A stretch of 35,699 nt of DNA from Ferroacidibacillus organovorans (GTDB taxonomy: Bacteria > Bacillota > Bacilli > Alicyclobacillales > SLC66), in assembly GCF_001642725.1 (NCBI RefSeq), contig NZ_LSUQ01000008.1:62001-97699 (forward strand). The letters run 5' to 3'. The notes beneath the pieces are model-generated. The model was not told the DNA's origin. It was given only the letters and a program-made list of their open reading frames with translations, and did not search any database. Positions within the stretch are counted from its first letter, which is position 1; each line of letters begins with the position of its first letter. Below, piece by piece: positions 8,832-29,239 of the stretch. Both the position numbers and the translations under genes were made by a program.

Positions 8832-8832
8832 A

Positions 8833-10390: not shown

Positions 10391-10460
10391 ACATACATCA
10401 TCTCCCCTCCAAGCATCGCTCACAGAATCAACCTGCGGGTGCCAGACAAGTGCCAACGCC

Positions 10461-11273: not shown

Positions 11274-11281
11274 TCCCCTCC

Positions 11282-12199: not shown

Positions 12200-12206
12200 C
12201 CTCTCC

Positions 12207-13517: not shown

Positions 13518-14281
13518 CCATGACCACCCCCTTTTGACGTTGTATTCGAACCCGTGGAACCCGTCTTAGGTGGCAACGTGGTTACGTGCGTCGTAGACAC
13601 TATGCCGTTCGCTGCGGGTAACGTCGACGGTGAATTGGCAAGCGGAATGGATCCGGGGGCCGCGAACGAGTCGTTTTGCGGGATCAGCGCCACTTGGACG
13701 TTGTTCTTCAGCACCGCAGGTGCAAGGATTTTGTAGTTTTCTTCACTAACGAAGATGAGTAGCGCCGTGGGTGTTCCCCCTTTAGCTGGTTGGAGTACAT
13801 TCAGCACGGGGACCGGTTCGATTGTCGTCAGTGTCTGCGTCGTGCCATTTTGTTGGGGCACCAATAACGCGATCTGCTCACCCGGATTGACCACCGACGC
13901 GAGGGGGCTTTGCACAGGCAGCGACATCAACATCCCAGTTTGCCCGGTGCGCTCTGTGTACTGGGTCAAAAAGGTCGAAAAGCTGCCACCTGAAGGGTTC
14001 AAGTCCCCAGCCGTAACGGGATCCCCTTTTGGCACAGTGTAGGAAAGATAGTGTCCAATAACCGCAGACTCATTTGTCGCTAAGCCTGCAATGCCACTGG
14101 TTTTCGAAACCGTCACCGTGGTGACATCACCCGCTTCGATTCGTGTGTAGGGGTACAACGTGCGAGTCGAGACGACGACGGTTTCCGTGTTTAGCATTCT
14201 CAAGAGCGCGAATGATCCGATGGTACCGGCCAGCACGGCGCAGAGTGCGCCAAGTACAAAGGAGAATGTACTTTTTCTCAC
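13514..14281 (-). CDS. cpaB: CpaB/RcpC-like SAF-domain protein
   Basis: N-terminal TM. VVVSTRTLYPYTRI...VIGHY...VPKGDPVTAGDL SAF pattern and VNPGEQI RcpC pattern. Confidence 0.8.
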   Translation of the reverse strand: MRKSTFSFVLGALCAVLAGTIGSFALLRMLNTETVVVSTRTLYPYTRIEAGDVTTVTVSKTSGIAGLATNESAVIGHYLSYTVPKGDPVTAGDLNPSGGSFSTFLTQYTERTGQTGMLMSLPVQSPLASVVNPGEQIALLVPQQNGTTQTLTTIEPVPVLNVLQPAKGGTPTALLIFVSEENYKILAPAVLKNNVQVALIPQNDSFAAPGSIPLANSPSTLPAANGIVSTTHVTTLPPKTGSTGSNTTSKGGGHG

Positions 14282-15504: not shown

Positions 15505-16639
15505 CTACGACTCCTCCTTCCATTCCCTGTCGATTGGGATCAACAAAACAGGCTGAGATTTGATCAACAATGGGCATCCACCACTTGCCAAAATTCGGGT
15601 CAAGCGTGACCAACGGCGTTTTCATCCGAATGGCATGAAACTGCCGTGGCTCGTGTGGGACGCAGACGACCTGTGCCTCCGTTATGCTGGTGAGTAAAAC
15701 CCCTGGTGTATGATGATTGACCAAGCAAATGGTCTTCCTGTCACCCCGTTCCCGCATGGCACGAAGTGTACGCCCCGTCCCGGTCATTTCCGGCCAGGTC
15801 ACCCAAAGCGTGAGATCTGCGTCGGGTATCAGTGAATCCGCCTCCTGCCGAGTGTCGAGGATGACTCGATAGCCTTGCGGCGGTTCGGACGCATAGACGT
15901 GCGATAGAAATGATTCATCGCACCAATGGGACAGCGTACCTGGGTTATCTTCCACCACCGCCGCTGGAAGTTCACTTTGATGACAGAGGGCAGCCACTTG
16001 CAGCGCAACAAAACTCTTCCCACAACCGCGATCCCCAAGGATACGCACGCGCACCGGGGATGGGTCTGGCCAAACGAACTTGCGCACGAGACGGGTGGAT
16101 GACGCCTGTCTAGCTGCGGATTTACCGTGTTCATCCTGGGCTTCTATCAAGGCATCAAACCGAGCCATGTTTGTCTCTGCGACACCACTCCTAAGTGGTG
16201 CCCACGTAAAGGGTTCATCCTTTGCGGAAAACACATCCACCAATTTGGGCGGCTCTGCGAGTCCGGTTTCCCCTCGTGACAAGTACATTGCGACGTCCTC
16301 GACGGAACGTTTGTGTTCAAGTAGTTTGTCAAGATCCTGCAAAACAAGTTCCTCCGCGACGAACAGAAAATCGTAAATCCCGAACACGCAAAGTTCTCGT
16401 TTGAAGTCCTCCGTTTCGTGCGCTGATGAACCGATGAACACAACGCGCGCACCCTTGTTGCGAACTCGATTCAATGCCTGCATCAACACATCTCGCTTGG
16501 CAAACATCCATTCGCAGACGACAAGTGTGTCCTCTGCGTGAAACTCGGTTTCCTCAATTTTCTGGGCATAGGCCAGCCAAACACTGCCTTTGTAGCGTTC
16601 TCGAAGATCGGATGGTAGCGCCAAATACAGCAAGGTCAC
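15482..16639 (-). CDS. Second, degenerate CpaE/TadZ-like protein (receiver-like + P-loop)
   Basis: GTG 16639 after GGAAGGAG. LCVFGIYDFL receiver-like motif, GDRGCGKS P-loop, ILDT. First gene of the tad operon. Confidence 0.6.
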   Translation of the reverse strand: MTLLYLALPSDLRERYKGSVWLAYAQKIEETEFHAEDTLVVCEWMFAKRDVLMQALNRVRNKGARVVFIGSSAHETEDFKRELCVFGIYDFLFVAEELVLQDLDKLLEHKRSVEDVAMYLSRGETGLAEPPKLVDVFSAKDEPFTWAPLRSGVAETNMARFDALIEAQDEHGKSAARQASSTRLVRKFVWPDPSPVRVRILGDRGCGKSFVALQVAALCHQSELPAAVVEDNPGTLSHWCDESFLSHVYASEPPQGYRVILDTRQEADSLIPDADLTLWVTWPEMTGTGRTLRAMRERGDRKTICLVNHHTPGVLLTSITEAQVVCVPHEPRQFHAIRMKTPLVTLDPNFGKWWMPIVDQISACFVDPNRQGMEGGVVDASVAGV

Positions 16640-16795
16640 ATTCTCCTTCCTGACGTACGGTGAATTTTGATTGAATGACGATGGATGACGTGTGTGAAGA
16701 AATCCAGGAGAGTAAATGCAAAAGAAGGTTCTAGCACGATGCCGGATATCCCGGCGAAACATTCAATGTCGCTTGGCCCACCTCCCATCACGTAC

Positions 16796-16849
16796 ACGGT
16801 ATCACGGAAAACAGGCGGTTCGGTGTCGCCAGAGTGCCAAAACTGTCCC
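16796..16849 (-). promoter_or_regulatory. Activator-box promoter copy B, upstream of tad operon
   Basis: Minus strand: GGGACAGTTT-TGGCAC-TCTGG-CGACAC-N21-TACCGT, with TG extended -10. Confidence 0.7.
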
Positions 16850-16864
16850 GGTGATCTTTGATCC

Positions 16865-18874
16865 CTAGGGGCCGGATACCCGAATGGTTGGGACCAATTG
16901 GCCCAGGCTCCCCAACTTCGGCAACGACTCAGTCGTATACATCCTGTTCCACGTCGGTTGGGATTGTTCATATTTCGCTGTCGCGTCCGGTATCTGATGC
17001 AGGTAGTACCATGTCGGGTATCCGAGCGTTTGCGCGAAATCCGCATCATTCCAAGTGACCGTGGAACCTTCTCCCGTGATGAACGAAACTGACGTCCCCA
17101 GGTGCGCACTGGATGCCCTGTCCCCACTTACATTCCACGCTGTCAGTTGGGAGAACGACTTGGGGACGCCTGTTGTGGCATATTTCGGAATGGATGTGTA
17201 CACCCAGCCAACCTCCGTTGCTGGCGGCGGAAATCCATTCCCATTCGGATCCCACACGGGTACGTCGCCTTGGTTAAATATCGTATCCGAAAGCAGGGGG
17301 AACGCCTTTGTCCAAACATTCGTGTCGCCATCGGGGTTGACGAGCTGGAAGGTCACATTGGCACGGCTTGGCATGTCGTGCGGGGAGCCGGTCCATTCCA
17401 GTCGAAATGCCACACCCCCACCTACTCGAACATAGATAGACGGGGAACGTGTGGGATTGCCATACGTGGGCAGCGCCTGGTTTCCGCCATCGGTGGATCC
17501 GTCCGAATACGCGTCCGAATTCTGCTGAGAAGCGGTTGGATTCGTCGGGGACCAGACATCCCCCGGCTGGCCGGGATCGTAGAAAAGGCCGGTCACCTGA
17601 AAATTGCTCAGATTGAGTGGGTAATCGTGATGATACGTGATTGGGCTGTCCACCCACTCAAATAGGGTACAGCCGTCACTGTCCGATGTCGTCTGTAATT
17701 GCCAGTGGGTGTCCGTCCACGTGAGCATTTGTCCGCCTGTTCCATCTGGAGACCAGTTGTACGAAAGCACTTCGTTTGCAGGCATGGGCGGAATCGTCGG
17801 GTTCGGACAAGTTGGACCACTCGGGGGTGATGGCGGAGTAGGTGGTGGCAACGGAGGCTGAGGCGGAGACGGGGCTTGAATCACCGTAAAATCTACGGTT
17901 GCCGAGGTCGCCGCTCGGTTGAACCAATCCTTGACCTCCAACTTGATCACGTAATGTCCGGGACTGAGGTTCTTCGTGTCGATTTCATTCGGTTGCGTAG
18001 ATCCCCCGTCCGTCGTTTCCACAAACGACGGGGGATACGTCGTCGCCCCGCCACCCTGCACCTCAACCATGGGCGCTCCATTCGAGGCATACAACGTTTC
18101 CCCATTGTACGGGGCTTTTCCCTGTAACGAGTTTTCATTGAAGCTTTCAGACGTGACGTCCACCCCACTGGCGTTCTTCACGGTAACCCATTCAAAGTGA
18201 TAGTTGGTGTGATAGGCTTCGATGAATGCGTGGTCCTTAAACTTGAGTGACTTTCCCTGTTGCACGCTGTCTGAACCTACAATGGTAATCTGCGCCTTGG
18301 GTGGATCGGTCGCGTATACGGGTTGGTTAAACCAATCTCCATTTGAATTAGGTACAAACGCCGCCCCGCTCATTTCGACAATTTGCGAGACGTTCGAAAC
18401 GGAAAATGGCTGTCCCGCACTATCTATAAATGTGGTGTTCCAGAGATGTGCAGTGACGTACGAAGGATCACCCTTGAGTGCGGCGATCCATTGCGATACC
18501 GTTGATTGACCCACCATCTTGTAACCGTTGTTTGAAGAGATTGGAACTCCGTCATGGCTAACGTGATCAAATCCCCATATGCCGCCTAGTGTGTCGTTGC
18601 CGTTGTAGATGGGGAGTCCATCCGCTCCGTACTTGTAATAGTCAAAATTTTACTGAATACTCTCCAATTCCGGGTCTGTAGTCGATTGAATGCGAAATTC
18701 TGTTCCAGCTGTGATTTGTCCATTTGGGATGATGGCCCCATCAGTACCCGGCGGATTACCCGTTCGAACAATATAGGCGAAAGCAGGAGGCGCATTCCAG
18801 AATGAAACCAATAAAATAGCGAGCGCCATCGCGCCCGCTAGACAAGATTCCCTGATTCGATTGGCCGATAACAT
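16865..18874 (-). pseudogene. Large secreted protein (about 669 codons) with Pro-rich linker, interrupted by one in-frame TAA
   Basis: ORF 18650-18874 (signal peptide ...PPAFA) and ORF 16865-18517 share a frame. Reading through TAA 18652-18650 gives continuous NFDYYKYGADGLPIYNGNDTLGGIWGFDH...YKMVGQ. Confidence 0.75.
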
Positions 18875-18901
18875 GTAGTCTCACTGCCCTTCATTCAGAA
18901 A

Positions 18902-20314
18902 TTAGTTCCCCCAAGCCGCTTGCCCGCTGCTATATTGAATTTTAGGCACGCCTCCGTCACTCCCAGGTGTCATGCCGATACTCGCAAACACGACATCGTC
19001 TTTTGGGTAGATGTAGGATGCATCCATTTCCGCGTGGCCCTCGGTCTTGACCCAGATTGTTTTGGGTGGTGATACGACTCCCCCATTGCTGGGGTCACGA
19101 GAGTCATATCCGGCAAATCCAGAAGTAACCGCCCATGTTTGACCGCCATTCACACTATACTCGGTATGGTTTCCAGTAGCATTGAACAACGACCCACAAC
19201 TCAATTCGCGAAGGTCCTGATCAGATAGGCTCGGCAATTGAAATTCTAAGTGCCCGGTGCTCTGGACACTGAACTGAATGGCATCTACCAAAGGAAACGC
19301 TAAGGACTGCCCCTTTGAAGCCATGGCTGCTGTCACATAATTGTCATGGGCGAAGGCCTTTTTCGCATCATACGGTTGAAACCATACTCGATACGTTCCA
19401 TTCGCGTTCTTGGAATAGCCGTGATACAAAGCAGACAGATTGGACATCATTTGCGCCTCGCCAGTACTCGTCAGCGTTCCATTTGCCAAGCCTTGATTCA
19501 ATTCCACTGCATTCGCCCAAGCGATAGTGCTACCGCCCGCATTCCAGGATAAATCACTGTCCGGGATACCCACATACAGTTGATACGCATGATCGACGGT
19601 CTCAGCATTCACAGAATCTGCTGAACCAAAATGGCTGCTACTGTCCGCAGTGAAATACCCTTTCTGCAACACCGCGTTCACGTATGGCCAGTCAGAAGCA
19701 CTCACATCATCAAACGGGTTGGAACTCGTAGCATCCGGCTGAATGTTCAAGGCATTCGCAAAGTCTTTTACCACCGTCAGTTTCGTCTCCGTAGGGGATG
19801 ATTCCGATGTAGTCATCGACCATGTCGTGCCATCCCAGGTCGATGTAATCCCTACCCGATTTAGTGCCTGCATCAAGTACCAGATTGGAATATACGAGGT
19901 AACAACGCGACCACTGGGATCCCGGTGGGCATAGCGCGGTGCGAAATCAACAGGTGTGCCGTTGATTTCAATACTCACATCGGATGAATTCGCCGAATCC
20001 TTCGGAGGATTCGTCAAGTCTGCATGCATGCCGCTTGGCAATACCAGATTCCAGTGATGTCCGTCCCAGGTGCTGCGGATATTCAACTCGGACAACACCT
20101 TGAACAGATACCAAATGGGCAACCAACTTGTTGGCTCTGACGTCGAACTCTCCGGGCGCACCAAGTGTGCCGGATTCGATGCGTCCTGTCCATTCAATAT
20201 CAAGCGGGTTGGAGCAGACTCTACAGCCTGAATGGTTTGGGCCCGTGAAATCGGTGCATACGTAACCAAACATGCGAACGCTGACGAAAATAAAACCATG
20301 GTCGATTTCTTCAT
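18902..20314 (-). CDS. Secreted cell-surface protein with duplicated N-terminal domain and SLH-like segment
   Basis: ATG 20314 after AAGGAGG, signal peptide. Two repeats TS(W/Y)xPIWYL...I(R/T)STWDG..W. PFDDVSASDWPYVNAVLQKGYF resembles SLH. Confidence 0.7.
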   Translation of the reverse strand: MKKSTMVLFSSAFACLVTYAPISRAQTIQAVESAPTRLILNGQDASNPAHLVRPESSTSEPTSWLPIWYLFKVLSELNIRSTWDGHHWNLVLPSGMHADLTNPPKDSANSSDVSIEINGTPVDFAPRYAHRDPSGRVVTSYIPIWYLMQALNRVGITSTWDGTTWSMTTSESSPTETKLTVVKDFANALNIQPDATSSNPFDDVSASDWPYVNAVLQKGYFTADSSSHFGSADSVNAETVDHAYQLYVGIPDSDLSWNAGGSTIAWANAVELNQGLANGTLTSTGEAQMMSNLSALYHGYSKNANGTYRVWFQPYDAKKAFAHDNYVTAAMASKGQSLAFPLVDAIQFSVQSTGHLEFQLPSLSDQDLRELSCGSLFNATGNHTEYSVNGGQTWAVTSGFAGYDSRDPSNGGVVSPPKTIWVKTEGHAEMDASYIYPKDDVVFASIGMTPGSDGGVPKIQYSSGQAAWGN

Positions 20315-20345
20315 GTTGTTCAACCTCCTTCTTCGCGTTATGACC

Positions 20346-20390
20346 AGACTATCACGGAAAAACGCAGATGGAGTGTCACACGAGTGCCAA
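20346..20390 (-). promoter_or_regulatory. Activator-box promoter copy A, upstream of surface-protein genes
   Basis: Minus strand: TGGCAC-TCGTG-TGACAC-N21-TAGTCT, with TG extended -10. Confidence 0.7.
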
Positions 20391-20447
20391 TCGCGTATTT
20401 CCCCCAATCTTGTGCTTGACCTCATAACTCTTGACCTGATACGGATT

Positions 20448-20491
20448 TGTCACTGCCTTGGCACCCCGGGCTAGAACAGGCGGACTATGCT
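20448..20491 (+). promoter_or_regulatory. Activator-box promoter copy E, divergent from A
   Basis: TGTCAC-TGCCT-TGGCAC-N21-TATGCT. Confidence 0.55.
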
Positions 20492-20631
20492 CAAAACATT
20501 CCAAACAATTCATATATGGAAAAGATTCACTCTGTCGAACAGCAAAGTCAAGTTTGGTACAGACAGTCACTACGTAGCATCTGAACCTTGTTTCACGGCT
20601 TATCCAATTCCTATCGAGGAGGGTCCCGCAC

Positions 20632-20865
20632 ATGAACTTATTCCCGCCTATATCCAAGGCATCCTGCCAACAAGTACATCAACAACCCGATGGCACAAAA
20701 AGAGTGACGCTGGGAGACAACAACGTCACCATCACCGTGACTTTCAACACGCCTTCACAGGATGCCATTGAGCGTTTCACACACACGCTTCATACCATTC
20801 TGATGCGCATGACTGACGAGGGGGAAACACCACCCGTCATTGACAAATCACCTCTCTCACCTTGA
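20632..20865 (+). CDS. Small hypothetical protein (77 aa)
   Basis: RBS GAGGAGGG upstream. Lies downstream of promoter copy E and converges on the arpU-like gene. Confidence 0.55.
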   Translation: MNLFPPISKASCQQVHQQPDGTKRVTLGDNNVTITVTFNTPSQDAIERFTHTLHTILMRMTDEGETPPVIDKSPLSP

Positions 20866-21321
20866 TGCAGTCCTTGTTTGCGAATCCTTCTCTTCCCAAA
20901 TGATCGCAAACTCACCACCTAGCGCCTCAAACAGCTTATGGATCACAACCACTCTCAGACGAAAAAAAGCCCGGCGTGACAAGTACATTGTTTCCCAAGC
21001 AATGGTGTTGTTTTTCTGTTCAAAATATTTCAACCGTACCAAGGCCATTTCTTCCTCCGTTAAGATAGATAGCGCATTTTCAATGAGTTCAATGTAAAAA
21101 AGCAGTGGCTGAATTTGCTGTTCTTCAATGATGAATCGCTTTTCTGTCGCATCATAGGTCGGATCGCTCACATCACCTTGCGAAAAAGACGGGATCGCCC
21201 TGAACGCAGAGCGCAGCCGTGGGTAGTCGTTCAATTGCGCGCGCAGGCTCTGCACACGACGCTTCCAGGATGGGTACACATACAGCCATCTTTCGATTTG
21301 CTGCATCCGAGGATCCGTCAT
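20857..21321 (-). CDS. ArpU/RinA-family phage-type transcriptional activator
   Basis: IERWLYVYP, SDPTYDAT, IENALSILTEEEMALVRLKYF and C-terminal sigma-region-4-like HTH (YLSRRAFFRLR...LFEALG). 154 aa. Confidence 0.85.
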   Translation of the reverse strand: MTDPRMQQIERWLYVYPSWKRRVQSLRAQLNDYPRLRSAFRAIPSFSQGDVSDPTYDATEKRFIIEEQQIQPLLFYIELIENALSILTEEEMALVRLKYFEQKNNTIAWETMYLSRRAFFRLRVVVIHKLFEALGGEFAIIWEEKDSQTRTASR

Positions 21322-21479
21322 TTCTCATCCGCCCACTTCGTCTGCCGCACGCGCCCTTTCACCTTGTGATACGCGTCGTGCCGCATCATGTTCTCGTACG
21401 CCTTCTGGCTCTGTGGGTATCGATGTGCAGGCTCAGTCGTGTTCCTCGTTTTCGTGGGCCGACCCTTCTCATCTCCCAA
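21318..21479 (-). CDS. Small basic hypothetical protein coupled to the arpU-like gene
   Basis: TTG start after GGAGG. Stop overlaps the arpU ATG (ATGA). YENMMRHDAYHKVKGRVRQ resembles small ORFs found before ArpU genes in Bacillota phages (from memory). Confidence 0.6.
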   Translation of the reverse strand: MGDEKGRPTKTRNTTEPAHRYPQSQKAYENMMRHDAYHKVKGRVRQTKWADEK

Positions 21480-21741
21480 GATCCGTCGCCTCCGTTTGCG
21501 TATATTTACTTTTGTAAACATTAACGAGATAAAAAAGTTCATCAAACGGCTTGTCCAACACGTGACAAAGCTGCATCGCAGCCTGAGGACTGGGATTGCG
21601 AAAGCCGCGCTCCAACTGGCTCACGTAGGCAATGCTGTAGTCGGCTGCTTGGGCAAGCTCACGCTGGGTAAAACCTTTCAAGATTCGTGCACGGGTGAAC
21701 GCTTCCGACTTGACACGGATTGGTCCTGACACCTTCGACAT
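21469..21741 (-). CDS. XRE/Cro-like HTH protein (possible excisionase/Cro)
   Basis: GFTQRELAQAADYSIAYVSQLERGFRNPSP...FDELF. Divergent from the repressor. ATG after GGGAGG. Confidence 0.85.
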   Translation of the reverse strand: MSKVSGPIRVKSEAFTRARILKGFTQRELAQAADYSIAYVSQLERGFRNPSPQAAMQLCHVLDKPFDELFYLVNVYKSKYTQTEATDLGR

Positions 21742-21765
21742 CGTGCCGCCTCCCATCTACACTTG

Positions 21766-21869
21766 TGTAAGGTCATCATAATCCGCATGATCTGGACCTG
21801 ACAACCGTATCTTTGATTACTTTTGATTACTTTTTCTCGTTGCGCATCTTGTTCATTGAATGGTATCAT
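21766..21869. promoter_or_regulatory. Divergent sigmaA promoters and operator region of the switch
   Basis: Minus: TTGTCA(21804-21799)-N18-TATGAT(21780-21775). Plus: TTGCGC(21840-45)-N18-TATCAT(21864-69) with TG. Tandem TTTGATTACT x2 (21812-21831). Imperfect IR TGTAAGGTCA/GGACCTGACA. Confidence 0.6.
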
Positions 21870-21902
21870 CGGCACAGGCTAAGGAGAGTAGGGTCGAAGT
21901 TT

Positions 21903-22493
21903 ATGGACGAGGCATTCGGCACTTGGTTGCGCAGGTTACGCAAGGAAAAAAAGATGAGTGTGCACGAGGTGGCGAAACGGGCAAATCTCACACCTGGGTA
22001 TATCTCAATGCTCGAAAACGGAAAGAGAAGACCCAAGGTCAGTACGCTGGCTCCTCTCTCCCAGGCGCTTGGCTTGGCTTATGGGGTTATGCTCCAAATG
22101 GCTGGTTATTTGGACGATCAGAACATGATTTTCGCCCATCGCCTACGGGCTGCTCGTATGGACAAAGAGATGAGTCCACACGACCTAGCAGAGCAATGTC
22201 ATCTGTCCGAGCGAACGATTGAACGCTGGGAGTCCGGCAACAGTCCACTGCCCGCCCGCGCTACCTTGGAACGCTTGGCCCGAGTGCTTGAGGTTTCAAT
22301 CGACCACCTCACGGGTGCACCAGACTTGCAGTCCATGGATCTTGGCGCATTGCTGAGCCAGGATCACATCTCCTACAACGGGATCCCTTTGAACGAAGAC
22401 CAACGAGCATTTGTACGTGATTTCATTCGCCGCACGCTTCAACTCTCCACGCCCTCCGTTGCCGATTTGCCTGAACCCGATGATTCGAATTGA
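21903..22493 (+). CDS. ImmR/CI-like repressor with two XRE HTH domains
   Basis: FGTWLRRLRKEKKMSVHEVAKR...ENGKRRP and FAHRLRAARMDKEMS...WESG...IDHLTG. C-terminal ISYNGIPLNEDQR typical of ImmA-cleaved repressors. Confidence 0.85.
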   Translation: MDEAFGTWLRRLRKEKKMSVHEVAKRANLTPGYISMLENGKRRPKVSTLAPLSQALGLAYGVMLQMAGYLDDQNMIFAHRLRAARMDKEMSPHDLAEQCHLSERTIERWESGNSPLPARATLERLARVLEVSIDHLTGAPDLQSMDLGALLSQDHISYNGIPLNEDQRAFVRDFIRRTLQLSTPSVADLPEPDDSN

Positions 22494-22840
22494 TCTATGG
22501 CGCCGCCCGTTTCCTTTAGTCGAGGATACAAAACATAACCGAGATGACGCAGGGTCTTCAAACACTTCGGAGCATTTGGATTATCCTCCAACGCCAAGCG
22601 AATTTTTCGGATGTAGACGTACAATTCGTCCCGTTGCACCATGCCCTGTTTTCCCCACGCGCGGTGAATCAACTCTTCCACAGTCAACGTCTCTCCCACA
22701 TGTAACGCGAAATAAACAAACAGGCGAAAAGCGATGGGCGTCAGGTATCGAATCTTCCCATCCTTCATAAGAACTGCGCCATTCAAGTCAAGATAACAAT
22801 CATCACCCAAATCTATCTGGCTATCCTCCAAGTTGCTCAT
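22439..22840 (-). CDS. Stand-alone OmpR/PhoB-type winged-helix DNA-binding protein (no receiver domain)
   Basis: LTPIAFRLF...LTVEELIHRAWG...LYVYIRKIRLALEDNPNAPKCLKTLRHLGYVL matches Trans_reg_C. Confidence 0.85.
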   Translation of the reverse strand: MSNLEDSQIDLGDDCYLDLNGAVLMKDGKIRYLTPIAFRLFVYFALHVGETLTVEELIHRAWGKQGMVQRDELYVYIRKIRLALEDNPNAPKCLKTLRHLGYVLYPRLKETGGAIDQFESSGSGKSATEGVES

Positions 22841-22910
22841 TTGCCATCCCCACTTTTTATGCAACCCTATCGAGGCGGGAAGGCGTGCACAGGGAGCGAG
22901 CCATTTTGAA

Positions 22911-23000
22911 ACGGCAACTGGCTGACAAAAGGCCGAAGTAAAAGACAGCCCGTAGTCCCTGTAGCTTTGCGTCCCCTACTTTCGCAGGGTTTGCCTTTTT
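22911..23000 (-). ncRNA. Cyclic di-GMP-I (GEMM-I) riboswitch
   Basis: Minus strand GGCAAACCCTGC-GAAA-GTAGGGGACGCAAAGCTACAGGGACTAC...TGTCAGCCAGTTGCC matches the GEMM-I consensus (GNRA-capped P2, GACGCAAAGC junction, CAGCCAGTTGCC 3' end). Lies about 70 nt upstream of the wHTH gene. Confidence 0.85.
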
Positions 23001-23030
23001 CGCGATACCTTGTAGTTGGTCATTCGTGTT

Positions 23031-24527
23031 TTACTCTTTACCGGATGGCTCCTCTGGAACACGCGCTCGAATGGACTGGGCAGGCCACGCAATCCTTCGC
23101 TCATTGTCCGAATAACGCGCGCAGACAGATTGACCACGTTCGATCAGTTCCTGAATCAGATCCTCACGTGCTTTCCAAGGCAATGGCGCAAGCTCTTCCC
23201 CAAACCATCCCACGCCACGGATGAAATGCTGTACCACGTTCTTTGCATCAGGGAACACCAGTTCAGATGACGACATGAACACCTCCACCTGTTCCAATCC
23301 GGCTTGTTTAAAATCTCGCGGTGCTTCATCAGGATGAAGTAAATAATCCCTTGGTTTCTCTTCCCGTTTTGCTGCCAAATCGAGGATCGGCGCGAACCAT
23401 TCTCGAAAGAAGGGTGCTGTGAAATCCATCTTCAAGGGATGCAAACTGGCGATGACACCGCCTGGACGCACCACCCGTTTCATTTCCTGTAGCGCCTCAG
23501 ATCGATTGGTAAAATGTAAGTACCCGACCCCAACCGCTATGTCGAACCGTTCCTCATCGACCGGCAACTGTTCCGCCTTTCCTTGACGAAAATCCACCCA
23601 GTCGATCTCCTGCCTTCTTTGCTTGCCTCGGGCGCGCGCAAGCATACCGGTCGACGGGTCCACCGCCACGACTGCGCCCGATGGACCCACGCGCTCCGCG
23701 AGACCAGCAGCGAATGTCAATACACCATCCGCACATCCCAGCTCCAGCACGCGCATACCTGCCTTTATACCCACCCATTCCAAAAAAGCCCGACGTTCGT
23801 CTATGGCGTTCGGCCAGACCATTCGATCCGTCTTGTCATAGTTGTTGAACAGATTGAACTGAGAGACGCAGAGTGTCTCCAGACGATACCGGAAATATCC
23901 AGCACGCTGTAAGGCATCCGTCGTTTTCTCTAGCACGCGACGCCCCTCATCCGTCAAACGGACAAAGCGATGTTCTCCCCGCTTCTCCAATTCGATATTC
24001 CCGAGTGAATAGGCGAACAAAACTTCCTCTCCCAGACTGTAATCCACCCAGGGTCGATGCCACGATCCACGCACATAATCGCGTTCGGGGATCTCCCCAA
24101 AATACCGAAGGGCGTTCAAGTTCTCCCAACAGGTCTCCAACATGTACAGTTGCATCAAAGTTGCAAATCCGTGGTCGTTGATAAAGTTCTCCACACGCTG
24201 CAACGCATCAAAGGCCATGGCTTCCGTGACATCCAGTTCACCCGTTTTCTGATGCGCTAAATTGACGGCCGCAGAAGCAGCCGTTTCGTATACTGCAATC
24301 TGTGCCATGCGCTCCGGCGCCGGTAAATCGCCAATTGCAAGGGCACGCTCTGCTTCCGTCCAATGGATGAACGCACACTCGCGGGAACGATCATGTAGGA
24401 ATTCGTGAATCTCCGGGTCGAATCGCGCGTTACCGTCAATTCCTGCAAGCCAAGGACTAATCACCAAACCTGCTGCCCAAAGTCTGTGCAAGGATTCTGT
24501 CAAGTCAGGGTAGATATACAAAGCCAT
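23031..24527 (-). CDS. Class I SAM-dependent methyltransferase (UbiE/Methyltransf_11-like) with about 230-aa N-terminal extension
   Basis: VLELGCADG motif I, VVAVDPSTGMLARAR, GKAEQLP...FD, EMKRVVRPGG. ATG 24527 after GGAGGGGG. Confidence 0.85.
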   Translation of the reverse strand: MALYIYPDLTESLHRLWAAGLVISPWLAGIDGNARFDPEIHEFLHDRSRECAFIHWTEAERALAIGDLPAPERMAQIAVYETAASAAVNLAHQKTGELDVTEAMAFDALQRVENFINDHGFATLMQLYMLETCWENLNALRYFGEIPERDYVRGSWHRPWVDYSLGEEVLFAYSLGNIELEKRGEHRFVRLTDEGRRVLEKTTDALQRAGYFRYRLETLCVSQFNLFNNYDKTDRMVWPNAIDERRAFLEWVGIKAGMRVLELGCADGVLTFAAGLAERVGPSGAVVAVDPSTGMLARARGKQRRQEIDWVDFRQGKAEQLPVDEERFDIAVGVGYLHFTNRSEALQEMKRVVRPGGVIASLHPLKMDFTAPFFREWFAPILDLAAKREEKPRDYLLHPDEAPRDFKQAGLEQVEVFMSSSELVFPDAKNVVQHFIRGVGWFGEELAPLPWKAREDLIQELIERGQSVCARYSDNERRIAWPAQSIRARVPEEPSGKE

Positions 24528-24913
24528 TCCCCCTCCGAGATTGTATAGTGAAGATTCCACACAATTCGCTAAATTCCTGTAACAAAGTGACATTTCATCA
24601 GACCCGGTTTGAGAAACCTGTGGTCTCAAACAGCTCTTTCGGGAATCCGTCTACTATGAAATGATGGTCCAATGAGTGAAACCTGTTTGTTATGTTTCGT
24701 GGATTTCCGAGGGGCGATGCGTGAAGTTTGGCGAACCTTAACGAATTTTAAGGTTCAAGCCGTTTCTCAAGTGCTATACTTTTTCTACCAGTTACCTTTT
24801 GGGGAATTGGCGAATGGCTCCATTCAAAAGAGAGAAGATTCATACAAACGGGTATTCAGTAGATACATAGGGCAGATCATAGAGATATCGCCTGACAAGA
24901 CAGCGAGTCAATC

Positions 24914-25339
24914 ATGGTTTGGGTGGGTGATGATGTGAGTGTACATATGCCAGAGGAAATCCATGGCGCCGTACAGCAACTCGTCGATACGTTTGAGACC
25001 AACGATCCGTTCCGTCTGAGTCGACTGCTGCACCTGCACCTATTGCCAGGTCGTACTCCAGCGGGAATATGGGGAATTCTGATGCGGTATGACAATGAAT
25101 CATTTTTTGGCTACGACATCAGTATTTCCGCTGACAAACAACGGATTTATATTGCACACGAGATTGGACATCTTGTGCTTCACGGTGACCATGCGCCACT
25201 TTTCCTAGAACTGGACGAACCCCGCCCCTCCGCTTTGGAAGCAGAGGCCCAGGCATTCGCCACTGATTTGCTTCAAGAGCCAGAACGAAGCCTCTTACAG
25301 TTGAACGAAAATTGGGTCTTGGGTCACTTAGGCCCCTGA
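24914..25339 (+). CDS. immA: ImmA/IrrE-family metallopeptidase (antirepressor); start may be 24947
   Basis: FETNDPFRL, QRIYIAHEIGHLVLH (HExxH), EAEAQAFATDLL. Confidence 0.85.
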   Translation: MVWVGDDVSVHMPEEIHGAVQQLVDTFETNDPFRLSRLLHLHLLPGRTPAGIWGILMRYDNESFFGYDISISADKQRIYIAHEIGHLVLHGDHAPLFLELDEPRPSALEAEAQAFATDLLQEPERSLLQLNENWVLGHLGP

Positions 25340-25615
25340 CCCCACTTTGTCTTCAAGAGCGCACTCTGCGTTGATTCCGTCCAACATCAGGTGCGCCACA
25401 AAGTTCGCAAAATCCCGAATTTCAGTTCCGCAGTTTTCGGCACACTGTGCCTCCCACTGAAGTAACAAGACGTGCTTGTCCTTGGATAAGGCGGCTTTCA
25501 ACTTTTCCCCCAACACATCCGGTTCTTCGCCGAGGCTAGCGTTTGATTGCAAATGCTCCTCATAGAAATCATCGATCAATTTCTCTGCCAACAGTTGCCG
25601 AGCCATTCCACACAT
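25328..25615 (-). CDS. Hypothetical acidic helical protein
   Basis: RBS GAGGAGG before ATG 25615. Possible TTGCTA-N18-TAAAGT promoter upstream. Confidence 0.55.
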   Translation of the reverse strand: MCGMARQLLAEKLIDDFYEEHLQSNASLGEEPDVLGEKLKAALSKDKHVLLLQWEAQCAENCGTEIRDFANFVAHLMLDGINAECALEDKVGSGA

Positions 25616-25689
25616 GCCCTTTTCCTCCTCACCCGCTTTGCTTGTCTGAGACTTTACCTCTGCGCTGTGCCACTTAGCAAGATCTTTGT

Positions 25690-25743
25690 GAGACACTTTT
25701 GGCACTCAGAGCGCACTTTTTCTCTGTTTTATCGAGATAAGAT
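25690..25743 (+). promoter_or_regulatory. Activator-box promoter copy C
   Basis: GAGACACTTT-TGGCAC-TCAGA-GCGCAC-N21-TAAGAT. Confidence 0.7.
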
Positions 25744-25764
25744 GCTATCACGGCATAAAAGGCG

Positions 25765-25796
25765 AGGCAGCGAGTTCAATCGCTGCTTTTTTGTTT
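25765..25796 (+). terminator. Terminator-like hairpin in leader of promoter C
   Basis: GCAGCGA-gttcaa-TCGCTGC followed by TTTTTTGTTT. Confidence 0.6.
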
Positions 25797-25821
25797 GCCG
25801 AAAAGGAGGTGAACTTCTTGA

Positions 25822-26103
25822 TTGCGAGACGCACCTGACGTGTATCGCTTCCTGCCGCCTGCATTCATCAAGCCTGCATTCCTGCAGGGCGTCCCGATTG
25901 AAGTCAATCCCGAGACATGGCTCGAAGGTACATTGAAGGCGAGTCAAATCCGTTTCACAATCCGTGACCGAGACACTTTTGGCACCCAGAGCGCACTTTT
26001 ATCCATGTTTTCAGGCGTACGATGCAAGCATGGATCAAAGGGACGAGGCAGCGACAACCAGTCGCCGCCTCGTTTTCGTTCCTATAAGGAGGCGTTCGCA
26101 TGA
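25822..26103 (+). CDS. Possible small hypothetical protein (93 aa)
   Basis: Strong RBS AAAGGAGGTGA at about 25802-25812. Stop overlaps the MTase ATG. However, the 3' half runs through promoter D and its hairpin. Confidence 0.4.
   Translation: MRDAPDVYRFLPPAFIKPAFLQGVPIEVNPETWLEGTLKASQIRFTIRDRDTFGTQSALLSMFSGVRCKHGSKGRGSDNQSPPRFRSYKEAFA
25970..26023 (+). promoter_or_regulatory. Activator-box promoter copy D (direct repeat of C, offset 280 bp)
   Basis: GAGACACTTT-TGGCAC-CCAGA-GCGCAC-N21-TACGAT. Confidence 0.7.
26043..26080 (+). terminator. Terminator-like hairpin in leader of promoter D
   Basis: ACGAGGCAGCGAC-aacca-GTCGCCGCCTCGT followed by TTTCGTT. Confidence 0.55.
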
Positions 26104-26897
26104 TTTCAAGTCCCATCAAGTGGCAAGGGGGAAAAGCCCGGCTGCGCCGAGTCATCCTCCCCCTCCTCCCCGAACACACCTGTTACGTGGAACCGTTCTT
26201 CGGGGCAGGCTGGATTTTCTTTGCCAAACCAAAGTCGAAGGTGGAGGTGATTTCTGACGTCAACGCCGAGCTCATTCAGTTCTATCAAGTCGTCAAGGAT
26301 GATTTGGAAGGGTTCCTTCGACAATTCGACTGGACGCTCTATTCGCGCGAGGAGTTTATCCGTGTCATGAACCGACGAAATGAAGAGCGCGATCCGCGTT
26401 TACGCGCCTACGACTTTTTCTATCGGGTACAGTCCCACTTTGGCGGAAAGTACAACAACTCGATTGATTGGGGATATGGCCGAGGCAAACCTGCCTTCGA
26501 CTTCTCTGCCATCCACGCCCGCATCGAAGCTGCGCACAAGCGGCTCTGTGGGGTCTACATTGAAAATCGTCCGTTTCATGATGTCATCCCTCGGTACGAC
26601 GGACCGGACACGTTCTACTATTGCGATCCGCCCTACTATGGCCTGACCGGATACCACCAACACCCGTTCACCAAGGAAGACCACCTCAAGTTGCGCGACA
26701 CGCTCGTAAATGCAGAAGGCAAATGGCTGCTCAGTATCAATGACCACCCAGACGTCCGCCGCTGGTACACCGACTTCTCCATGGAATCCGTGGATGTCCA
26801 CTATTCCATCAGTCGACAGAAGACCGGACGCAAATCCGGAGAACTGCTGATTCGCAACTACACACTATCTGAGCATCGCGAGGTGACCGTCCAATGA
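26100..26897 (+). CDS. Orphan DNA adenine methyltransferase (Dam/D12 class)
   Basis: KWQGGKA, YVEPFFGAG, EVISDVN, FYYCDPPYY, ELLIRNY. Confidence 0.92.
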   Translation: MISSPIKWQGGKARLRRVILPLLPEHTCYVEPFFGAGWIFFAKPKSKVEVISDVNAELIQFYQVVKDDLEGFLRQFDWTLYSREEFIRVMNRRNEERDPRLRAYDFFYRVQSHFGGKYNNSIDWGYGRGKPAFDFSAIHARIEAAHKRLCGVYIENRPFHDVIPRYDGPDTFYYCDPPYYGLTGYHQHPFTKEDHLKLRDTLVNAEGKWLLSINDHPDVRRWYTDFSMESVDVHYSISRQKTGRKSGELLIRNYTLSEHREVTVQ

Positions 26898-29239
26898 GTA
26901 ATCTGTCCCTGTCTCAGAAGACCAAAAAGCCCAACCCATTTACGTTTTACCGCATTGCCTTCCCATCCGAACACTCGGTATCGGCACAACAGGCGCACGC
27001 CTTCCTTCAATCGCTCTCCGGGATCCTGTGGCAAAAGCAAACACTCGGCATTCAACGTCCGCTTCCTCTTCGCTTCCTTGTTGTGAAAGAACCGGGCGAA
27101 TCGGTCACCCGGTTCTACCTTGGCCTACCCACGCTGCGCGACGAGGCCGTCCAGTCCGCGTTTCGCTCAGCCTACCCGCACGTCCATCTGATTGCAGAAC
27201 CAACGCCCACGTTTCTGACACAAAGCCTCGACCGTCGCTCGCTCGCCATCTCGTTTCGCAAAGGCGGGCAGGGTCTCGAACCCTGGTTGCCCCTGTCCTC
27301 TCATCGCGTCGGTGAATCCGGCGATCCCCTTGATCATTTGATGGATGCCATCGGATCGGATGTAGCCAGTCGCTGGGTTTTCGAAGTGTGGTTCACGCCG
27401 ATGCGCGATGCCAAGTTCCAGCGCACCCTCTTGAAGAAGGCCCAACCACCCGGAAGCAAGGGTACATCCGGGTTCTCCCTGTCCGAAGTGCTCGCAGAGG
27501 TCTTCGGAAAATCGCCGTTGCAAAAACGTCCAACACTGCCTGTCCCAGATCCCTATGCTGAACAAAGACCCATTGTTCGTTCGCGACTCCTGTCAAACCA
27601 GCGTCCGTTTCGCGTCTCCGTCCGCCTTTTGGCAAGCGGCTCCACAAGCGTAAGAGCACACCTGCACGCCGTGCTTGGGGCCATGGGCCACCTTCGAGAG
27701 GCAGGATGGATTGTGCCAAGCCGCATCACGAAACGTCGACTCGCCAAGGCCATGCATCAAGGCATACCCACACGCCCGATGTGGTGGACCTCTGGAGAAC
27801 TGGCCTCCTTAGTCCATCTCCCTGACAGTCGGCAACCCGGCTTTCGCTACGTGGCGACCGCGCAGGGACGGGTCCTCCCCCCACCCAAGTGGAAAAGCGA
27901 AGGTCTCCGGCTTGGCTGGTCCGACTTTCCGGGGAAGGAAGACCAAGCGATTCACATTCCGCTCGGTCAGGCGGCCAAGCACACGTTTCTTGCGGGTGCG
28001 ACCGGTTCCGGCAAAACCACGACCCTCCTGCAAATCATGTTGGGGTTGGTTGCCCAGATGCAGACGAATCCCGACACGGCACCCGGATTCACCTTCTTTG
28101 ATCCGCACGGCGGTGCGATTGAGCGACTGCTCGCCCACATTCCACCCAGCCTTCATCACAAAGTACATGTGATTCCACTCGGCCCGACCGAGTATCCACG
28201 TGGCCTCAACCTGTTTCGCATGGATCACCGAGATGACGCAGAGGCGATCACGGGTGAGTTCGTCACCACGTTGCAGGAACTGTGGCCTGGTTCCCGACCA
28301 CGTTCCGAGCACTATTTGCGCAATAACGTCCTGTCGCTGCTCCAGCAACCGCCCCAGACGGTGCTTGGTATCGCTCACCTGTTCGCAAACGAACGTTTTC
28401 GCCAAGAACTGATTCCGAAACTGCCGTCCCATCTGCAAGACTTTTGGATGCAGGAGTTCGCGGAGATTCGAAACATCGCCGACCACTTGGGTCCTATCTG
28501 GAACAAGCTCGGGGCGCTCACCACGTACCCGTCTCTGCGTCGCATGCTCGGCCAGACCAAGAGCGCCGTCGACACGCGCGCCGTCATGGACGAGGGAGAC
28601 ATCGTGCTCATCGATGGGTCAGGTTGCACCACCGATGCCATCAAGATCATCGCGGGACTGTACCTGATTGACCTCCACTTCACTTGCAAACGTCGACCCG
28701 AACACCGATCCCGCCTACATCTATTCCTCGGCGACGAGGCGCATCTGTACGCCGTCAATGTGCTGCAAAAAATTCTCGCGGAAGACCGCAAATTCGGCCT
28801 GTCCCTATTCCTGGCCACCCAGTACCTTGACCAATTGCCCGACCCGATCCTCGCCGGAATTCTCGGCAATGTCGGCACGCTCATCCTGCTGCAACTCGGC
28901 GGGCCAGATGCGGACAGGCTCACGCGGTGGCTGAAGCCGGAGGTCTCGGCGCGCCAACTGATGACTCTGCCTGAGATGCATGCGCTGGTACGCACCAAGC
29001 TTGAAGGCGGCGTCACGGAACTGTTCACCATGCAGAACCCGCTCGTTCCCGCTGGCCATGAAGAATGGGCAGCAGAGGTCATTGCCCATTCGGACCTTGC
29101 GGATGGACGGCCAGCGAACGAAGTGGATCAGGACATCGAGGCGATGTACGGTCGCTCCAAGGCGGCTGTCCAGGAACATACGATGCCCATTCGTCACTTC
29201 GCTTTTCCGCGTACTGAAGACCCGGAGGAACCATCCTGA
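26894..29239 (+). CDS. virD4: VirD4/TraD-like type IV coupling ATPase
   Basis: HTFLAGATGSGKTT, FFDPHG, LFLGDEAH, EDRKFGLSLFLATQYLDQL, ILGNVGTLI. Confidence 0.85.
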   Translation: MSNLSLSQKTKKPNPFTFYRIAFPSEHSVSAQQAHAFLQSLSGILWQKQTLGIQRPLPLRFLVVKEPGESVTRFYLGLPTLRDEAVQSAFRSAYPHVHLIAEPTPTFLTQSLDRRSLAISFRKGGQGLEPWLPLSSHRVGESGDPLDHLMDAIGSDVASRWVFEVWFTPMRDAKFQRTLLKKAQPPGSKGTSGFSLSEVLAEVFGKSPLQKRPTLPVPDPYAEQRPIVRSRLLSNQRPFRVSVRLLASGSTSVRAHLHAVLGAMGHLREAGWIVPSRITKRRLAKAMHQGIPTRPMWWTSGELASLVHLPDSRQPGFRYVATAQGRVLPPPKWKSEGLRLGWSDFPGKEDQAIHIPLGQAAKHTFLAGATGSGKTTTLLQIMLGLVAQMQTNPDTAPGFTFFDPHGGAIERLLAHIPPSLHHKVHVIPLGPTEYPRGLNLFRMDHRDDAEAITGEFVTTLQELWPGSRPRSEHYLRNNVLSLLQQPPQTVLGIAHLFANERFRQELIPKLPSHLQDFWMQEFAEIRNIADHLGPIWNKLGALTTYPSLRRMLGQTKSAVDTRAVMDEGDIVLIDGSGCTTDAIKIIAGLYLIDLHFTCKRRPEHRSRLHLFLGDEAHLYAVNVLQKILAEDRKFGLSLFLATQYLDQLPDPILAGILGNVGTLILLQLGGPDADRLTRWLKPEVSARQLMTLPEMHALVRTKLEGGVTELFTMQNPLVPAGHEEWAAEVIAHSDLADGRPANEVDQDIEAMYGRSKAAVQEHTMPIRHFAFPRTEDPEEPS

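Follow-up and report, generated by a model that had tools for sequence, protein, structure and literature searches.

A RinA-like candidate activator and six repeat-bearing promoters in a conjugative element of Ferroacidibacillus organovorans

Introduction

Which protein switches on the transfer genes of a conjugative element whose control region carries a gene resembling the late regulators of phages? We addressed this question for a stretch of 35,699 nt from Ferroacidibacillus organovorans (contig NZ_LSUQ01000008.1, positions 62,001 to 97,699, assembly GCF_001642725.1). This whole stretch, hereafter called the window, is a conjugative element; its host is an acid-loving Gram-positive bacterium. 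On its minus strand a Tad-type pilus region (5797–18517), with genes for an A24 prepilin peptidase, a large Ig-domain protein, T2SSF, a T2SSE ATPase, SAF/CpaB and a ParA-like protein, is followed by the gene of an SLH-like surface protein. The plus strand carries from position 26100 onwards dam, a coupling protein gene, a Replic_Relax relaxase gene, dcm, and the genes of TcpE and an AAA_10 VirB4-like ATPase, which belong to a type IV secretion system (T4SS). The control block lies between these two gene sets.

An earlier note on this DNA had seen no phage structural genes in the window, and our searches agree: phage structural families were found neither among 33 window open reading frames (ORFs) in Pfam nor among 16 in PHROGs. 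The one exception was marginal: through its P-loop the VirB4-like ATPase matched terL (E 7e-4). Our best explanation of the locus overall, to which we assign a probability of roughly 0.6, is that a co-opted RinA-family regulator activates the transfer operons through six promoters.

Family and fold of the regulator

The protein in question is encoded in the control block on the minus strand.

20857–21321, minus strand: RinA-like regulator of the Ltr superfamily, 154 aa (phrog_36, sub-cutoff TIGR01636, AlphaFold model, BFVD fold matches)

Against PHROGs the regulator matched phrog_36 (transcriptional regulator) with E 8.6e-14 and phrog_248 (transcriptional activator) with E 1.9e-6. In NCBIfam it aligned with positions 6–133 of the 134 positions of TIGR01636, the RinA family, at 22.6 bits (E 9.6e-5); there was no match to TIGR01637 (ArpU) at E≤0.01, and a match to the MG284/MPN403 C-domain stayed below threshold. 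The curated NCBI cutoff for TIGR01636 is 31.9 bits. A relative with 31% identity from the conjugative element of genome G196 lies above this value (38.4 bits), and P0016 scored 35.7 bits against the same model. When an alignment of 10 close homologues was used as a profile against 1.84 billion representatives, it yielded 192 relatives at E≤1e-3, 18 of them at E≤1e-10. We scanned 142 sequences, namely the window regulator and 141 of these 192 relatives, for known families: 105 matched TIGR01636, 54 TIGR01637, 88 a generic sigma-70 model and 23 DUF1492. In the 14 proteins whose coordinates were inspected the sigma-70 match was mostly limited to region 4.

In the AlphaFold (AF2) model of the regulator (pLDDT 78.8) a pair of long helices forms the N-terminal part, and three helices make up the C-terminal domain, a sigma-70 region-4-like helix-turn-helix (HTH) with the recognition helix LSRRAFFRLR. 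Fold matches in BFVD with probability 1.00 were predicted phage proteins named transcriptional activator, sigma70_r4 and DUF1492. A Foldseek search of the PDB returned nothing at E≤0.001, the best relevant rows being SigA region 4 (E 4.5), and a wide VIA-align search gave helical hairpins with Z<7 and sigma-32 regions 3–4 with Z 6.2, which is within noise. In the alignment the regulator is collinear with prophage Ltr proteins from an N-terminal IExWLxxYxxWK motif through the HTH.

Because NCBIfam, PHROGs, the profile relatives and the fold point the same way when combined, we place the protein by its sequence in the Ltr superfamily, as a divergent member closest to RinA that is neither a strict TIGR01636 member nor an ArpU protein. 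The earlier note had spoken of an ArpU/RinA-family late activator and had named family models as a check. Its superfamily and the RinA side are upheld by phrog_36, the fold and the full-length, if sub-cutoff, TIGR01636 alignment, and the ArpU label falls with the missing TIGR01637 match.

Six promoters with a common repeat and spacing

The motif TGGCAC-N8-CAC is present seven times in the window against 0.42 expected occurrences, and none of 100 shuffles reached seven. Five copies are intergenic and face an operon (A 20389, B 16839 and C 10455 on the minus strand, D 25700 and E 25980 on the plus strand). The five CAC-box promoters listed in the earlier note are thus real, but their count has to be raised to six: site F (20448–20464, plus strand), which has one mismatch, lies back to back with A and faces the conserved convergent ORF orf77.

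20346–20389, minus strand: promoter A, TGGCAC-N5-TGACAC, 21 nt, TGaTAGTCT; heads the SLH-like gene (real start about 20314)
16796–16839, minus strand: promoter B, TGGCAC-N5-CGACAC, 21 nt, TGaTACCGT; heads the Tad assembly operon (syntenic sites)
10412–10455, minus strand: promoter C, TGGCAC-N5-TGGCAC, 21 nt, GATGCT; heads distal pilus and adhesin genes (syntenic sites)
25700–25789, plus strand: promoter D, TGGCAC-N5-GCGCAC, 21 nt, TAAGAT; leader hairpin and U-run at 25764–25789
25980–26076, plus strand: promoter E, near-duplicate of D with −10 TACGAT; leader hairpin and U-run at about 26040–26076
20448–20491, plus strand: promoter F, TGTCAC-N5-TGGCAC, 21 nt, TATGCT; divergent from A, faces orf77
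20632–20865, plus strand: orf77, conserved ORF of 77 aa (tblastn, 42–55% identity in 8 loci)

All six promoters have the same layout: a repeat of the type TGGCAC-N5-nGnCAC with an 11-bp period, exactly 21 nt, and a −10 hexamer. The −10-like hexamers at +38 to +43 of the sites read, from A to F, TAGTCT, TACCGT, GATGCT, TAAGAT, TACGAT and TATGCT, and A and B have an additional TG at −15/−14. A −35 hexamer was found at none of the six in a sigma-70 scan. With −10 and start site as predicted, the two hexamers of the repeat would occupy approximately −50 to −45 and −39 to −34, which puts them one turn of the helix from each other. Across 32 sites from 9 loci TAnnnT is present at +38 to +43 in 24, A2 and T6 in 29 and TG at −15/−14 in 17; all of these features lie outside the pattern used for the motif search.

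The promoter sites are syntenic across all related elements. Site A is found at the syntenic position in all 10 loci, and the F site is represented by TGTCAC-N5-nGGCAC in 8 of the 10, with GGACAC-N5-TGACAC in the two loci of the C73 type (L014 and the C73 type read by eye). Such locus counts overstate independence, since the related loci are kin. In the whole 3.03-Mb genome the motif has 31 matches, seven of them in the window and two each on contigs C73 and C56; C73 carries a regulator paralogue with 48% identity and C56 a second pair of coupling protein and relaxase genes. In the complete 6-Mb genome G021, 8 of 13 exact TGGCAC-N6-GGCAC sites are located at most 10 kb downstream of three regulator copies, and the reversed pattern as a control gave 7 matches genome-wide.

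The operon headed by promoter B comprises a 426-aa gene, TadZ-like, CpaB, ATPase and further genes, and promoter E is positioned directly upstream of the operon of dam, coupling protein, relaxase and T4SS genes. Promoters A–C lead straight into ribosome-binding sites with no terminator in between. The leaders of D and E fold into hairpins with z values of −4.26 and −4.37. The D and E units form a tandem duplication of promoter and leader hairpin with U-run (25700–26092, plus strand). Contigs of an element relative with about 92% identity, found in two mine-tailings metagenome runs (window 16000–27000 compared), differ from the window at this duplication, with the joint at 25824–25913. The runs listed for this DNA include no RNA run, and the two mine-tailings runs, although labelled RNA-Seq, are probably DNA metagenomes that bear on neither expression nor transcript ends.

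For orf77 we found no family match in Pfam or PHROGs. The ORF runs towards the regulator gene and reaches into its 3′ end, and promoter F together with orf77 may give antisense feedback on the regulator. The orf77 leader (20448–20865, plus strand) contains the conserved words GGAAaAGATTCaCTC and AAGTCAAGT.

Two other readings of this region were dropped. An ORF at 25822–26103 (plus strand) between D and E is conserved solely where it overlaps promoter E. In comparison with the sigma-54 consensus, TGGCAC-N5-nnGC might be taken for a sigma-54 promoter, but the conserved −10 sits 21 nt downstream and the GC is present in 3 of 5 sites.

Early operon, coupled peptide and candidate repressor gene

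The regulator gene is the last gene of an early operon, in which it is preceded by the genes of a Cro-like HTH protein and a 53-aa peptide, and which is divergent from the gene of a double-HTH repressor candidate.

21469–21756, minus strand: Cro-like HTH_3 protein, 95 aa, first gene of the early operon (PF01381, E 2.9e-13; kept in all related loci)
21318–21479, minus strand: conserved small protein, 53 aa, TTG start (21479) (ATGA overlap in 10 of 10 related loci)
21775–21804, minus strand: early sigma-A-type promoter TTGTCA-18-TATGAT (10 of 12 consensus matches; kept in 10 Alicyclobacillales-type loci)
21811–21833, no strand assigned: two tandem operator-like boxes (AAAGTnAnCAAA, 10-bp period) just upstream of the early −35 (sequence reading; kept in 10 loci)
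21903–22493, plus strand: divergent repressor candidate with two HTH_3 domains (PF01381 in two stretches, E 1.5e-25)
20703–20730, minus strand: terminator-like hairpin and T-run, about 130 nt past the regulator stop

The start codon of the regulator overlaps the stop codon of the small ORF as ATGA, and the small ORF, which probably starts with the TTG at 21479 downstream of a GGAGG, overlaps the stop codon of the HTH_3 gene. These overlaps and the HTH_3 matches bear out the arrangement given in the earlier note, a divergent repressor gene opposite a coupled operon of HTH gene, small ORF and regulator gene. The hairpin at 20703–20730 likely ends the early operon. The repressor ORF was listed from a TTG at 21813; the ATG at 21903 is its likely start, as most tblastn alignments of orthologues begin at residue 17–31. 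Since two HTH domains fit two direct boxes, the tandem AAAGTnAnCAAA boxes are a candidate site of the double-HTH repressor. In addition to the two copies of the operator-like word CAAAAGT(A/G)AA upstream of the early promoter (21811–21833), a third copy is present at 21500–21525 (minus strand), inside the 3′ end of the HTH gene and just before the ribosome-binding site of the peptide; this arrangement was seen in all 10 loci inspected.

The peptide has the conserved core YE(K/N)(L/M)MRHDaYrrVkGRvRQTKW and no family match in Pfam, NCBIfam or PHROGs; a protein atlas search returned unnamed clusters alone, with scores of at most 0.85. Outside the closely related loci, a 22-aa form with the ATGA overlap was read from the sequence of metagenome locus L056, and in L058 a tblastn match to the peptide is located directly upstream of the regulator. 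The G196 element has a peptide homologue, but an uncoupled one, which follows the HTH gene at a distance of 1.5 kb from the regulator. A complex prediction for regulator and peptide scored 0.01 against a mark of 0.32 and was used neither way.

The same promoter design in other lineages

According to Quiles-Puchalt 2013 (PMC3753634), Ltr proteins act through short direct repeats. We found comparable repeats next to regulator relatives in three further lineages. In the G196 element CGGAAC-N5-TGGGAC is followed after 18 nt by GTGGTAGTAT, a hairpin with U-run and the coupling-protein gene, and the RinA-like gene faces this operon. A Cohnella plasmid has six (A/T)TGCAC hexamers, mostly 11–12 bp apart, followed by TTTTCCTGATAC and a hairpin, 170–260 bp past the regulator gene; among seven metagenome loci of the same type five contain ATGCAC-N5-ATGCAC or TTGCAC tandems within 200 nt after the regulator gene. 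The third case is L056, a metagenome locus of the G064 type, with ten TGnnAC hexamers in a strict 11-bp period (7075–7185), TGtTAAGAT, a hairpin and the genes of coupling protein, relaxase and TcpE. An array of ten hexamers suggests cooperative coating of one face of the DNA. The arrays of the Cohnella plasmid, G196 and L056 were read by eye, as was the L056 hairpin; the fold z values are −3.0 for the G196 hairpin and −2.7 for that of the plasmid. Short leader units of hairpin and U-run, placed before the first gene, lie at 12764–12866 of L040, 15600–15770 of L001 and 7075–7260 of L056. At T4SS-side promoters such hairpins could provide an attenuation or antitermination step.

The regulators that the four lineages have in common are the RinA-like protein, the small peptide (not found in the Cohnella type) and XRE-type HTH proteins; for the XRE proteins, separate operator boxes are conserved at the early promoter. 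The recognition helix SRRAFF pairs with hexamers of a GCAC core in two lineages and SRSGFY with GGAAC/GGGAC in a third, a small sample that points in the expected direction. A survey of homologous elements for joint variation of activator and motif had been suggested in the earlier note; in our survey the promoter set travels with the regulator across the four lineages.

Proposed activation and alternative explanations

The gene layout, the family relationship and the motif, whose geometry is fixed and which accompanies the regulator in four lineages, lead us to infer DNA binding and activation by the regulator as follows. The early sigma-A-type promoter would drive HTH protein, peptide and regulator, the latter as the third, translationally coupled product, with the tandem operator boxes beside this promoter and the gene of the putative double-HTH repressor opposite; an inducing signal is presumed. 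The regulator would bind TGGCAC-N5-TGGCAC as two or more tandem protomers, at about −50 to −34 and on one face of the helix, and would recruit RNA polymerase to the six promoters, whose −10 is good and in many cases extended and which lack a −35. Its targets would be the gene of the surface protein (A), the operon for Tad assembly (B), the distal genes for pilus and adhesins (C), those for DNA processing and the T4SS (D, E) and orf77 (F), and the whole transfer apparatus would stand where phage late genes would. Because a hairpin and U-run follow the T4SS-side promoters, the regulator might also carry the polymerase through the leader terminators. Alternatively, these terminators may damp leaky expression.

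Several observations weigh against this explanation. The 22.6 bits of the regulator remain below the TIGR01636 cutoff, which speaks against strict RinA membership, and there was no Pfam match at E≤0.01. The covariation of helix and hexamer comes from three or four lineages alone. According to PMC3753634, the repeats of phage Ltr systems immediately follow the ltr gene; here the nearest site lies about 470 bp from the regulator gene and others up to 10 kb away. For the G064-type loci an exact-repeat scan of the 700 nt after the regulator gene found nothing; in the one locus read, the repeats are located further on, before the coupling-protein gene. Finally, direct repeats of the hexamer-N5-hexamer type are typical of winged-helix (wHTH) proteins of the OmpR family, as in the sites of WalR, PhoB and PhoP, and such a protein is encoded close by. 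Phyletics within the Alicyclobacillales-type clade do not separate the two proteins, since the wHTH gene is present in every complete element.

The alternative that survives best assigns the repeats to the same protein in a different role, as a specificity factor bound to RNA polymerase: either one half of a two-subunit sigma-like factor together with the 53-aa peptide, or a Q-type antiterminator that loads at the repeats. The C-terminal domain of the regulator is indeed sigma region-4-like, and the promoters can also be read as GGCAC-N16/17-CGTGATA, which resembles the geometry of extracytoplasmic function (ECF) sigma factors. On the other hand, the −10 is that of a normal sigma-A promoter with extended −10, sigma region 2 was detected neither in the regulator nor in the peptide, and two to ten hexamers at an 11-bp period suit an oligomerising DNA binder better than a single −35 contact. 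The coupling of peptide and regulator genes in 10 of 10 loci, and in the 22-aa form in another lineage, would fit two subunits, but in G196 the two genes are 1.5 kb apart. Orf7, which is sigma-4-like, and Orf8 of Tn916 are likewise coupled and, in bioRxiv 10.64898/2026.10.01.756105, are reported to bind RNA polymerase; against this precedent, the peptide is unlike Orf8, and the regulator matches Orf7 over the HTH alone (hhalign probability 6.8%). Hairpin and U-run leaders at four T4SS-side promoters (z −4.3, −4.4, −3.0 and −2.7) would suit an antiterminator, although promoters A–C have no terminator. Taken together we regard a polymerase-bound factor as unlikely. The same holds for its most elaborate form, an unlikely but attractive one, in which the RinA-type regulator and its coupled peptide would ride RNA polymerase as a sigma-4 surrogate or Q-like antiterminator past the T4SS leader terminators, timed by a wHTH protein that is gated by cyclic di-GMP (c-di-GMP). 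If true, the late genes of Gram-positive phages and an entire class of conjugative elements would share one mechanism.

The next alternative concerns the wHTH protein itself, as direct activator of the TGGCAC promoters, with the RinA-like protein acting elsewhere, e.g. in the early switch. Its gene lies beyond the repressor gene, together with two further features.

22439–22864, minus strand: stand-alone OmpR/PhoB-type wHTH protein, likely start ATG 22840 (PF00486, E 1.2e-15, 57.8 bits)
22909–23004, minus strand: aptamer of a c-di-GMP-I-clan (CL00126) riboswitch in the leader of the wHTH gene (RF03167, 63 bits against a gathering score of 59, E 9.2e-13)
23031–24629, minus strand: 532-aa protein with a C-terminal S-adenosylmethionine (SAM) methyltransferase domain (Methyltransf_31/25/11, E about 1e-19; synteny)

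Since its 141 aa contain a Trans_reg_C domain and no receiver domain, the wHTH protein is a stand-alone effector domain; its best NCBIfam neighbours are MtrA, YycF and PhoB. The gene is convergent on the repressor gene with an overlap of 55 nt, and orthologues adjoin every complete Alicyclobacillales-type element. All 7 related loci have an aptamer of the same clan ahead of the wHTH gene; five match RF01051 with 66.7–71.8 bits against a threshold of 35 and two RF03167. By its sequence this leader RNA is a riboswitch of the c-di-GMP-I clan, with a putative ligand, and is predicted to control the wHTH gene. It would be a second input to the early switch; neither it nor the terminator hairpins after D and E figure in the earlier note. 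The methyltransferase-domain gene is kept together with the wHTH gene, and this in Alicyclobacillales-type elements alone; the 260-aa N-terminal half of its product matches no family. Contig C73 seemed to lack the wHTH gene, which we rejected: the contig breaks off within the methyltransferase gene, and in G046 the orthologous element continues with the wHTH gene past this point.

This alternative is a serious one because hexamer-N5-hexamer repeats near −35 are the classic site type of the OmpR family, to which the Trans_reg_C match and the NCBIfam neighbours lead. Furthermore there is one wHTH orthologue per regulator copy in G046 (2 and 2) and G021 (3 and 3), and pili and surface proteins are common targets of c-di-GMP, which would suit a riboswitch kept in all seven loci. 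However, the promoter design persists in three lineages that have the RinA-like gene and no wHTH orthologue. The whole genomes of G196 and G221 contained none, the matches there being response-regulator-like, with E≥1e-11 and on other contigs, and there were no matches in 13 metagenome loci. The pair of wHTH and methyltransferase genes looks like an addition specific to Alicyclobacillales-type elements. We therefore hold direct activation by the wHTH protein to be improbable. Because three other lineages share the promoter design without a wHTH gene, the RinA-like protein is the best candidate, and it probably is the DNA-binding activator of promoters A–F. That it reads the repeats at all, with the activator and polymerase-bound variants counted together, appears highly probable from the comparison of sequences.

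It is hardly credible that the repeats are repressor operators, or that the RinA-like protein represses, with promoters that fire by default without it: the repeats do overlap the −35 region, a frequent place for repressor binding, but the lack of a −35 in the sigma-70 scan at all six promoters is typical of activator-dependent ones, and the characterised Ltr family members are, according to PMC3753634, activators.

Origin and distribution of the regulator

Homologues of the regulator were found in 7 of 64 genomes of the order, in a patchy distribution across 6 of 26 genera. Among 401 sampled Bacilli genomes 10 had a match at E≤1e-7. Of the four relatives with E 1e-9 to 1e-11 three are prophage genes (G017, G133, G331), and these occupy the position usual for Ltr genes: recombination and replication genes come first, and terS, terL and portal genes follow. 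Non-phage settings were found for all three relatives at E<1e-20: that of G196 adjoins genes of a coupling protein and a relaxase, that of G221 matches the Cohnella plasmid, and the locus of G064 is disrupted by an insertion sequence (IS). In metagenome loci of the G064 type the regulator gene is located directly upstream of the genes of coupling protein, relaxase and TcpE.

The non-phage relatives and the G064-type loci support a capture of the phage regulator by conjugative elements. Since the closest out-group proteins are encoded in prophages, ahead of terS, terL and portal genes, the statement in the earlier note that a phage late regulator was repurposed by a conjugative element is a fair reading. 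Judged from these relationships, a lineage of Bacillota conjugative elements most likely took over a regulator of the RinA-family late-gene type.

The ImmA-like gene

The earlier note had placed a further tier above the regulator, in which ImmA inactivates ImmR. An ImmA-like gene is indeed present near the methyltransferase gene.

24914–25339, plus strand: candidate ImmA-like M78 metallopeptidase with HEIGH (PF06114, 24.4 bits against a cutoff of 22, weak)

The window copy has both the Peptidase_M78 domain and the HExxH motif, with a marginal Pfam match. In 5 of 5 orthologues (L012, L013, L015, L031 and G000:C63) the Glu of HExxH is replaced by G or A, the motifs being HGIAH, HALGH, HGLGH, HGLAH and HGIGH, and the G196 homologue has lost it altogether (IEIGY). 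The gene is 2.4 kb away from the repressor gene, with the wHTH and methyltransferase genes between them on the other strand, so that the adjacency of immA and immR known from ICEBs1 is not found in the window. In G196 the ImmR-like and ImmA-like genes are adjacent, which makes a functional pair plausible. The peptidase-like gene of the earlier note thus exists, but the tier built on it is weak, and proteolysis by the ImmA-like protein is doubtful as a conserved mechanism.

Further observations on the element

The segment 5797–20425 (minus strand) comprises a complete Tad/Flp-type pilus set and the SLH-like surface protein inside a Tcp/Tn916-type conjugative element, with promoters shared with the T4SS. 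Pilus and surface protein are possibly a device for mating-pair adhesion. Positions 1–5796 resemble decayed cargo, with a DDE transposase fragment, a DsbD-like gene, an isolated ORF with a nonribosomal peptide synthetase (NRPS) condensation domain and a truncated major facilitator superfamily (MFS) gene; the 1.6 kb at 4159–5796 contain no long ORF. The host genome has at least one further, diverged copy of the element, that with the paralogous regulator on contig C73. This copy and further coupling-protein and relaxase copies are spread over contigs C73, C63, C56, C59, C52 and C72, and the assembly breaks inside element copies.

Comparison with known systems

To our knowledge the control of Gram-positive conjugation is known from few models, namely ImmR/ImmA, peptide pheromones and lately Sig7-Sig8 of Tn916. 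In a literature search, with subscription journals outside its scope, no paper came up in which a protein of the RinA or ArpU family regulates a conjugative element; two matches were ruled out, the ArpU of PMC10221548 as a string artefact and PMC3084688 as an unrelated contig annotation. The locus points to another class of control, in which a co-opted family of phage late regulators would switch a multi-operon transfer regulon that includes a Tad pilus. Its promoter code of tandem hexamers, 21 nt and a −10 is readable from sequence and would allow regulon prediction in genomes and metagenomes. The small set of testable parts offers a tractable system for the action of Ltr proteins on RNA polymerase, and the riboswitch-controlled regulator would tie conjugation to cyclic-dinucleotide signalling.

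In the bioRxiv preprint 10.64898/2026.10.01.756105 by Gomberg and Grossman, Orf7 and Orf8 of Tn916 are reported as a split sigma factor, Sig7-Sig8. This is a precedent for positive control of a Gram-positive integrative and conjugative element (ICE) by a sigma-4-like protein, and it reduces the novelty of positive control here. Both systems are Tcp/Tn916-type elements under positive control, reported for Tn916 and predicted here, by a protein of about 140 aa with a C-terminal sigma-4-like HTH. In both, the regulator gene is coupled to a small partner gene, with an overlap also seen in Tn916, and faces a divergent HTH gene. In contrast to Tn916, the gene order is reversed and a repressor-type switch is present in the window element. 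The HTH-limited match of the regulator to Orf7 has an E of 0.005, and the partners are unrelated (hhalign probability of peptide and Orf8 0.2%). Orf7 matches the sigma-70 model TIGR02937, with no RinA or ArpU model among its 25 matches listed. The operon of the regulator itself has no target motif ahead of it, so that nothing points to an autoactivation loop, unlike in Tn916.

Like ICEBs1, the window element has in its control region a repressor gene of the XRE type, in divergent orientation, and a gene resembling those of M78 peptidases; in the G196 relative the two are adjacent, as in ICEBs1. It differs in the two HTH domains of the repressor, in the two opposite-strand genes that separate the ImmA-like gene from it by 2.4 kb, and in the lack of the catalytic Glu in all five orthologues. 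We know of no second-tier activator in ICEBs1. Two-tier logic is found in SetR/SetCD of SXT/R391 and AcaCD of IncC plasmids, where a phage-type repressor holds the master activator of dispersed transfer operons. SetCD and AcaCD belong to an unrelated, FlhDC-like activator family in Gram-negative hosts and do not have the arrangement of pilus and riboswitch.

The closest likeness is with phages. Late transcriptional regulators of the RinA/ArpU/LtrA-C type in Gram-positive phages were reportedly described by Ferrer in 2011. They are also the subject of Quiles-Puchalt 2013 (PMC3753634), and, according to that paper, they too are the product of the last early-operon gene under a CI/Cro-type switch and have target promoters with short direct repeats. 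The window regulator further shares with them its size and the N-terminal helices joined to a sigma-4-like HTH, and its nearest out-group relatives are prophage genes before terS. Unlike phage Ltr genes, the regulator gene is not located directly upstream of terS or a morphogenesis operon but has Tad pilus and T4SS genes as neighbors, is preceded by a conserved coupled peptide gene and is not immediately followed by the repeats. Its predicted regulon is composed of six dispersed promoters for Tad pilus, surface proteins and T4SS and includes no virion genes. By analogy the window system would work like a phage CI/Cro-plus-Ltr cascade in which pilus and T4SS replace the late genes.

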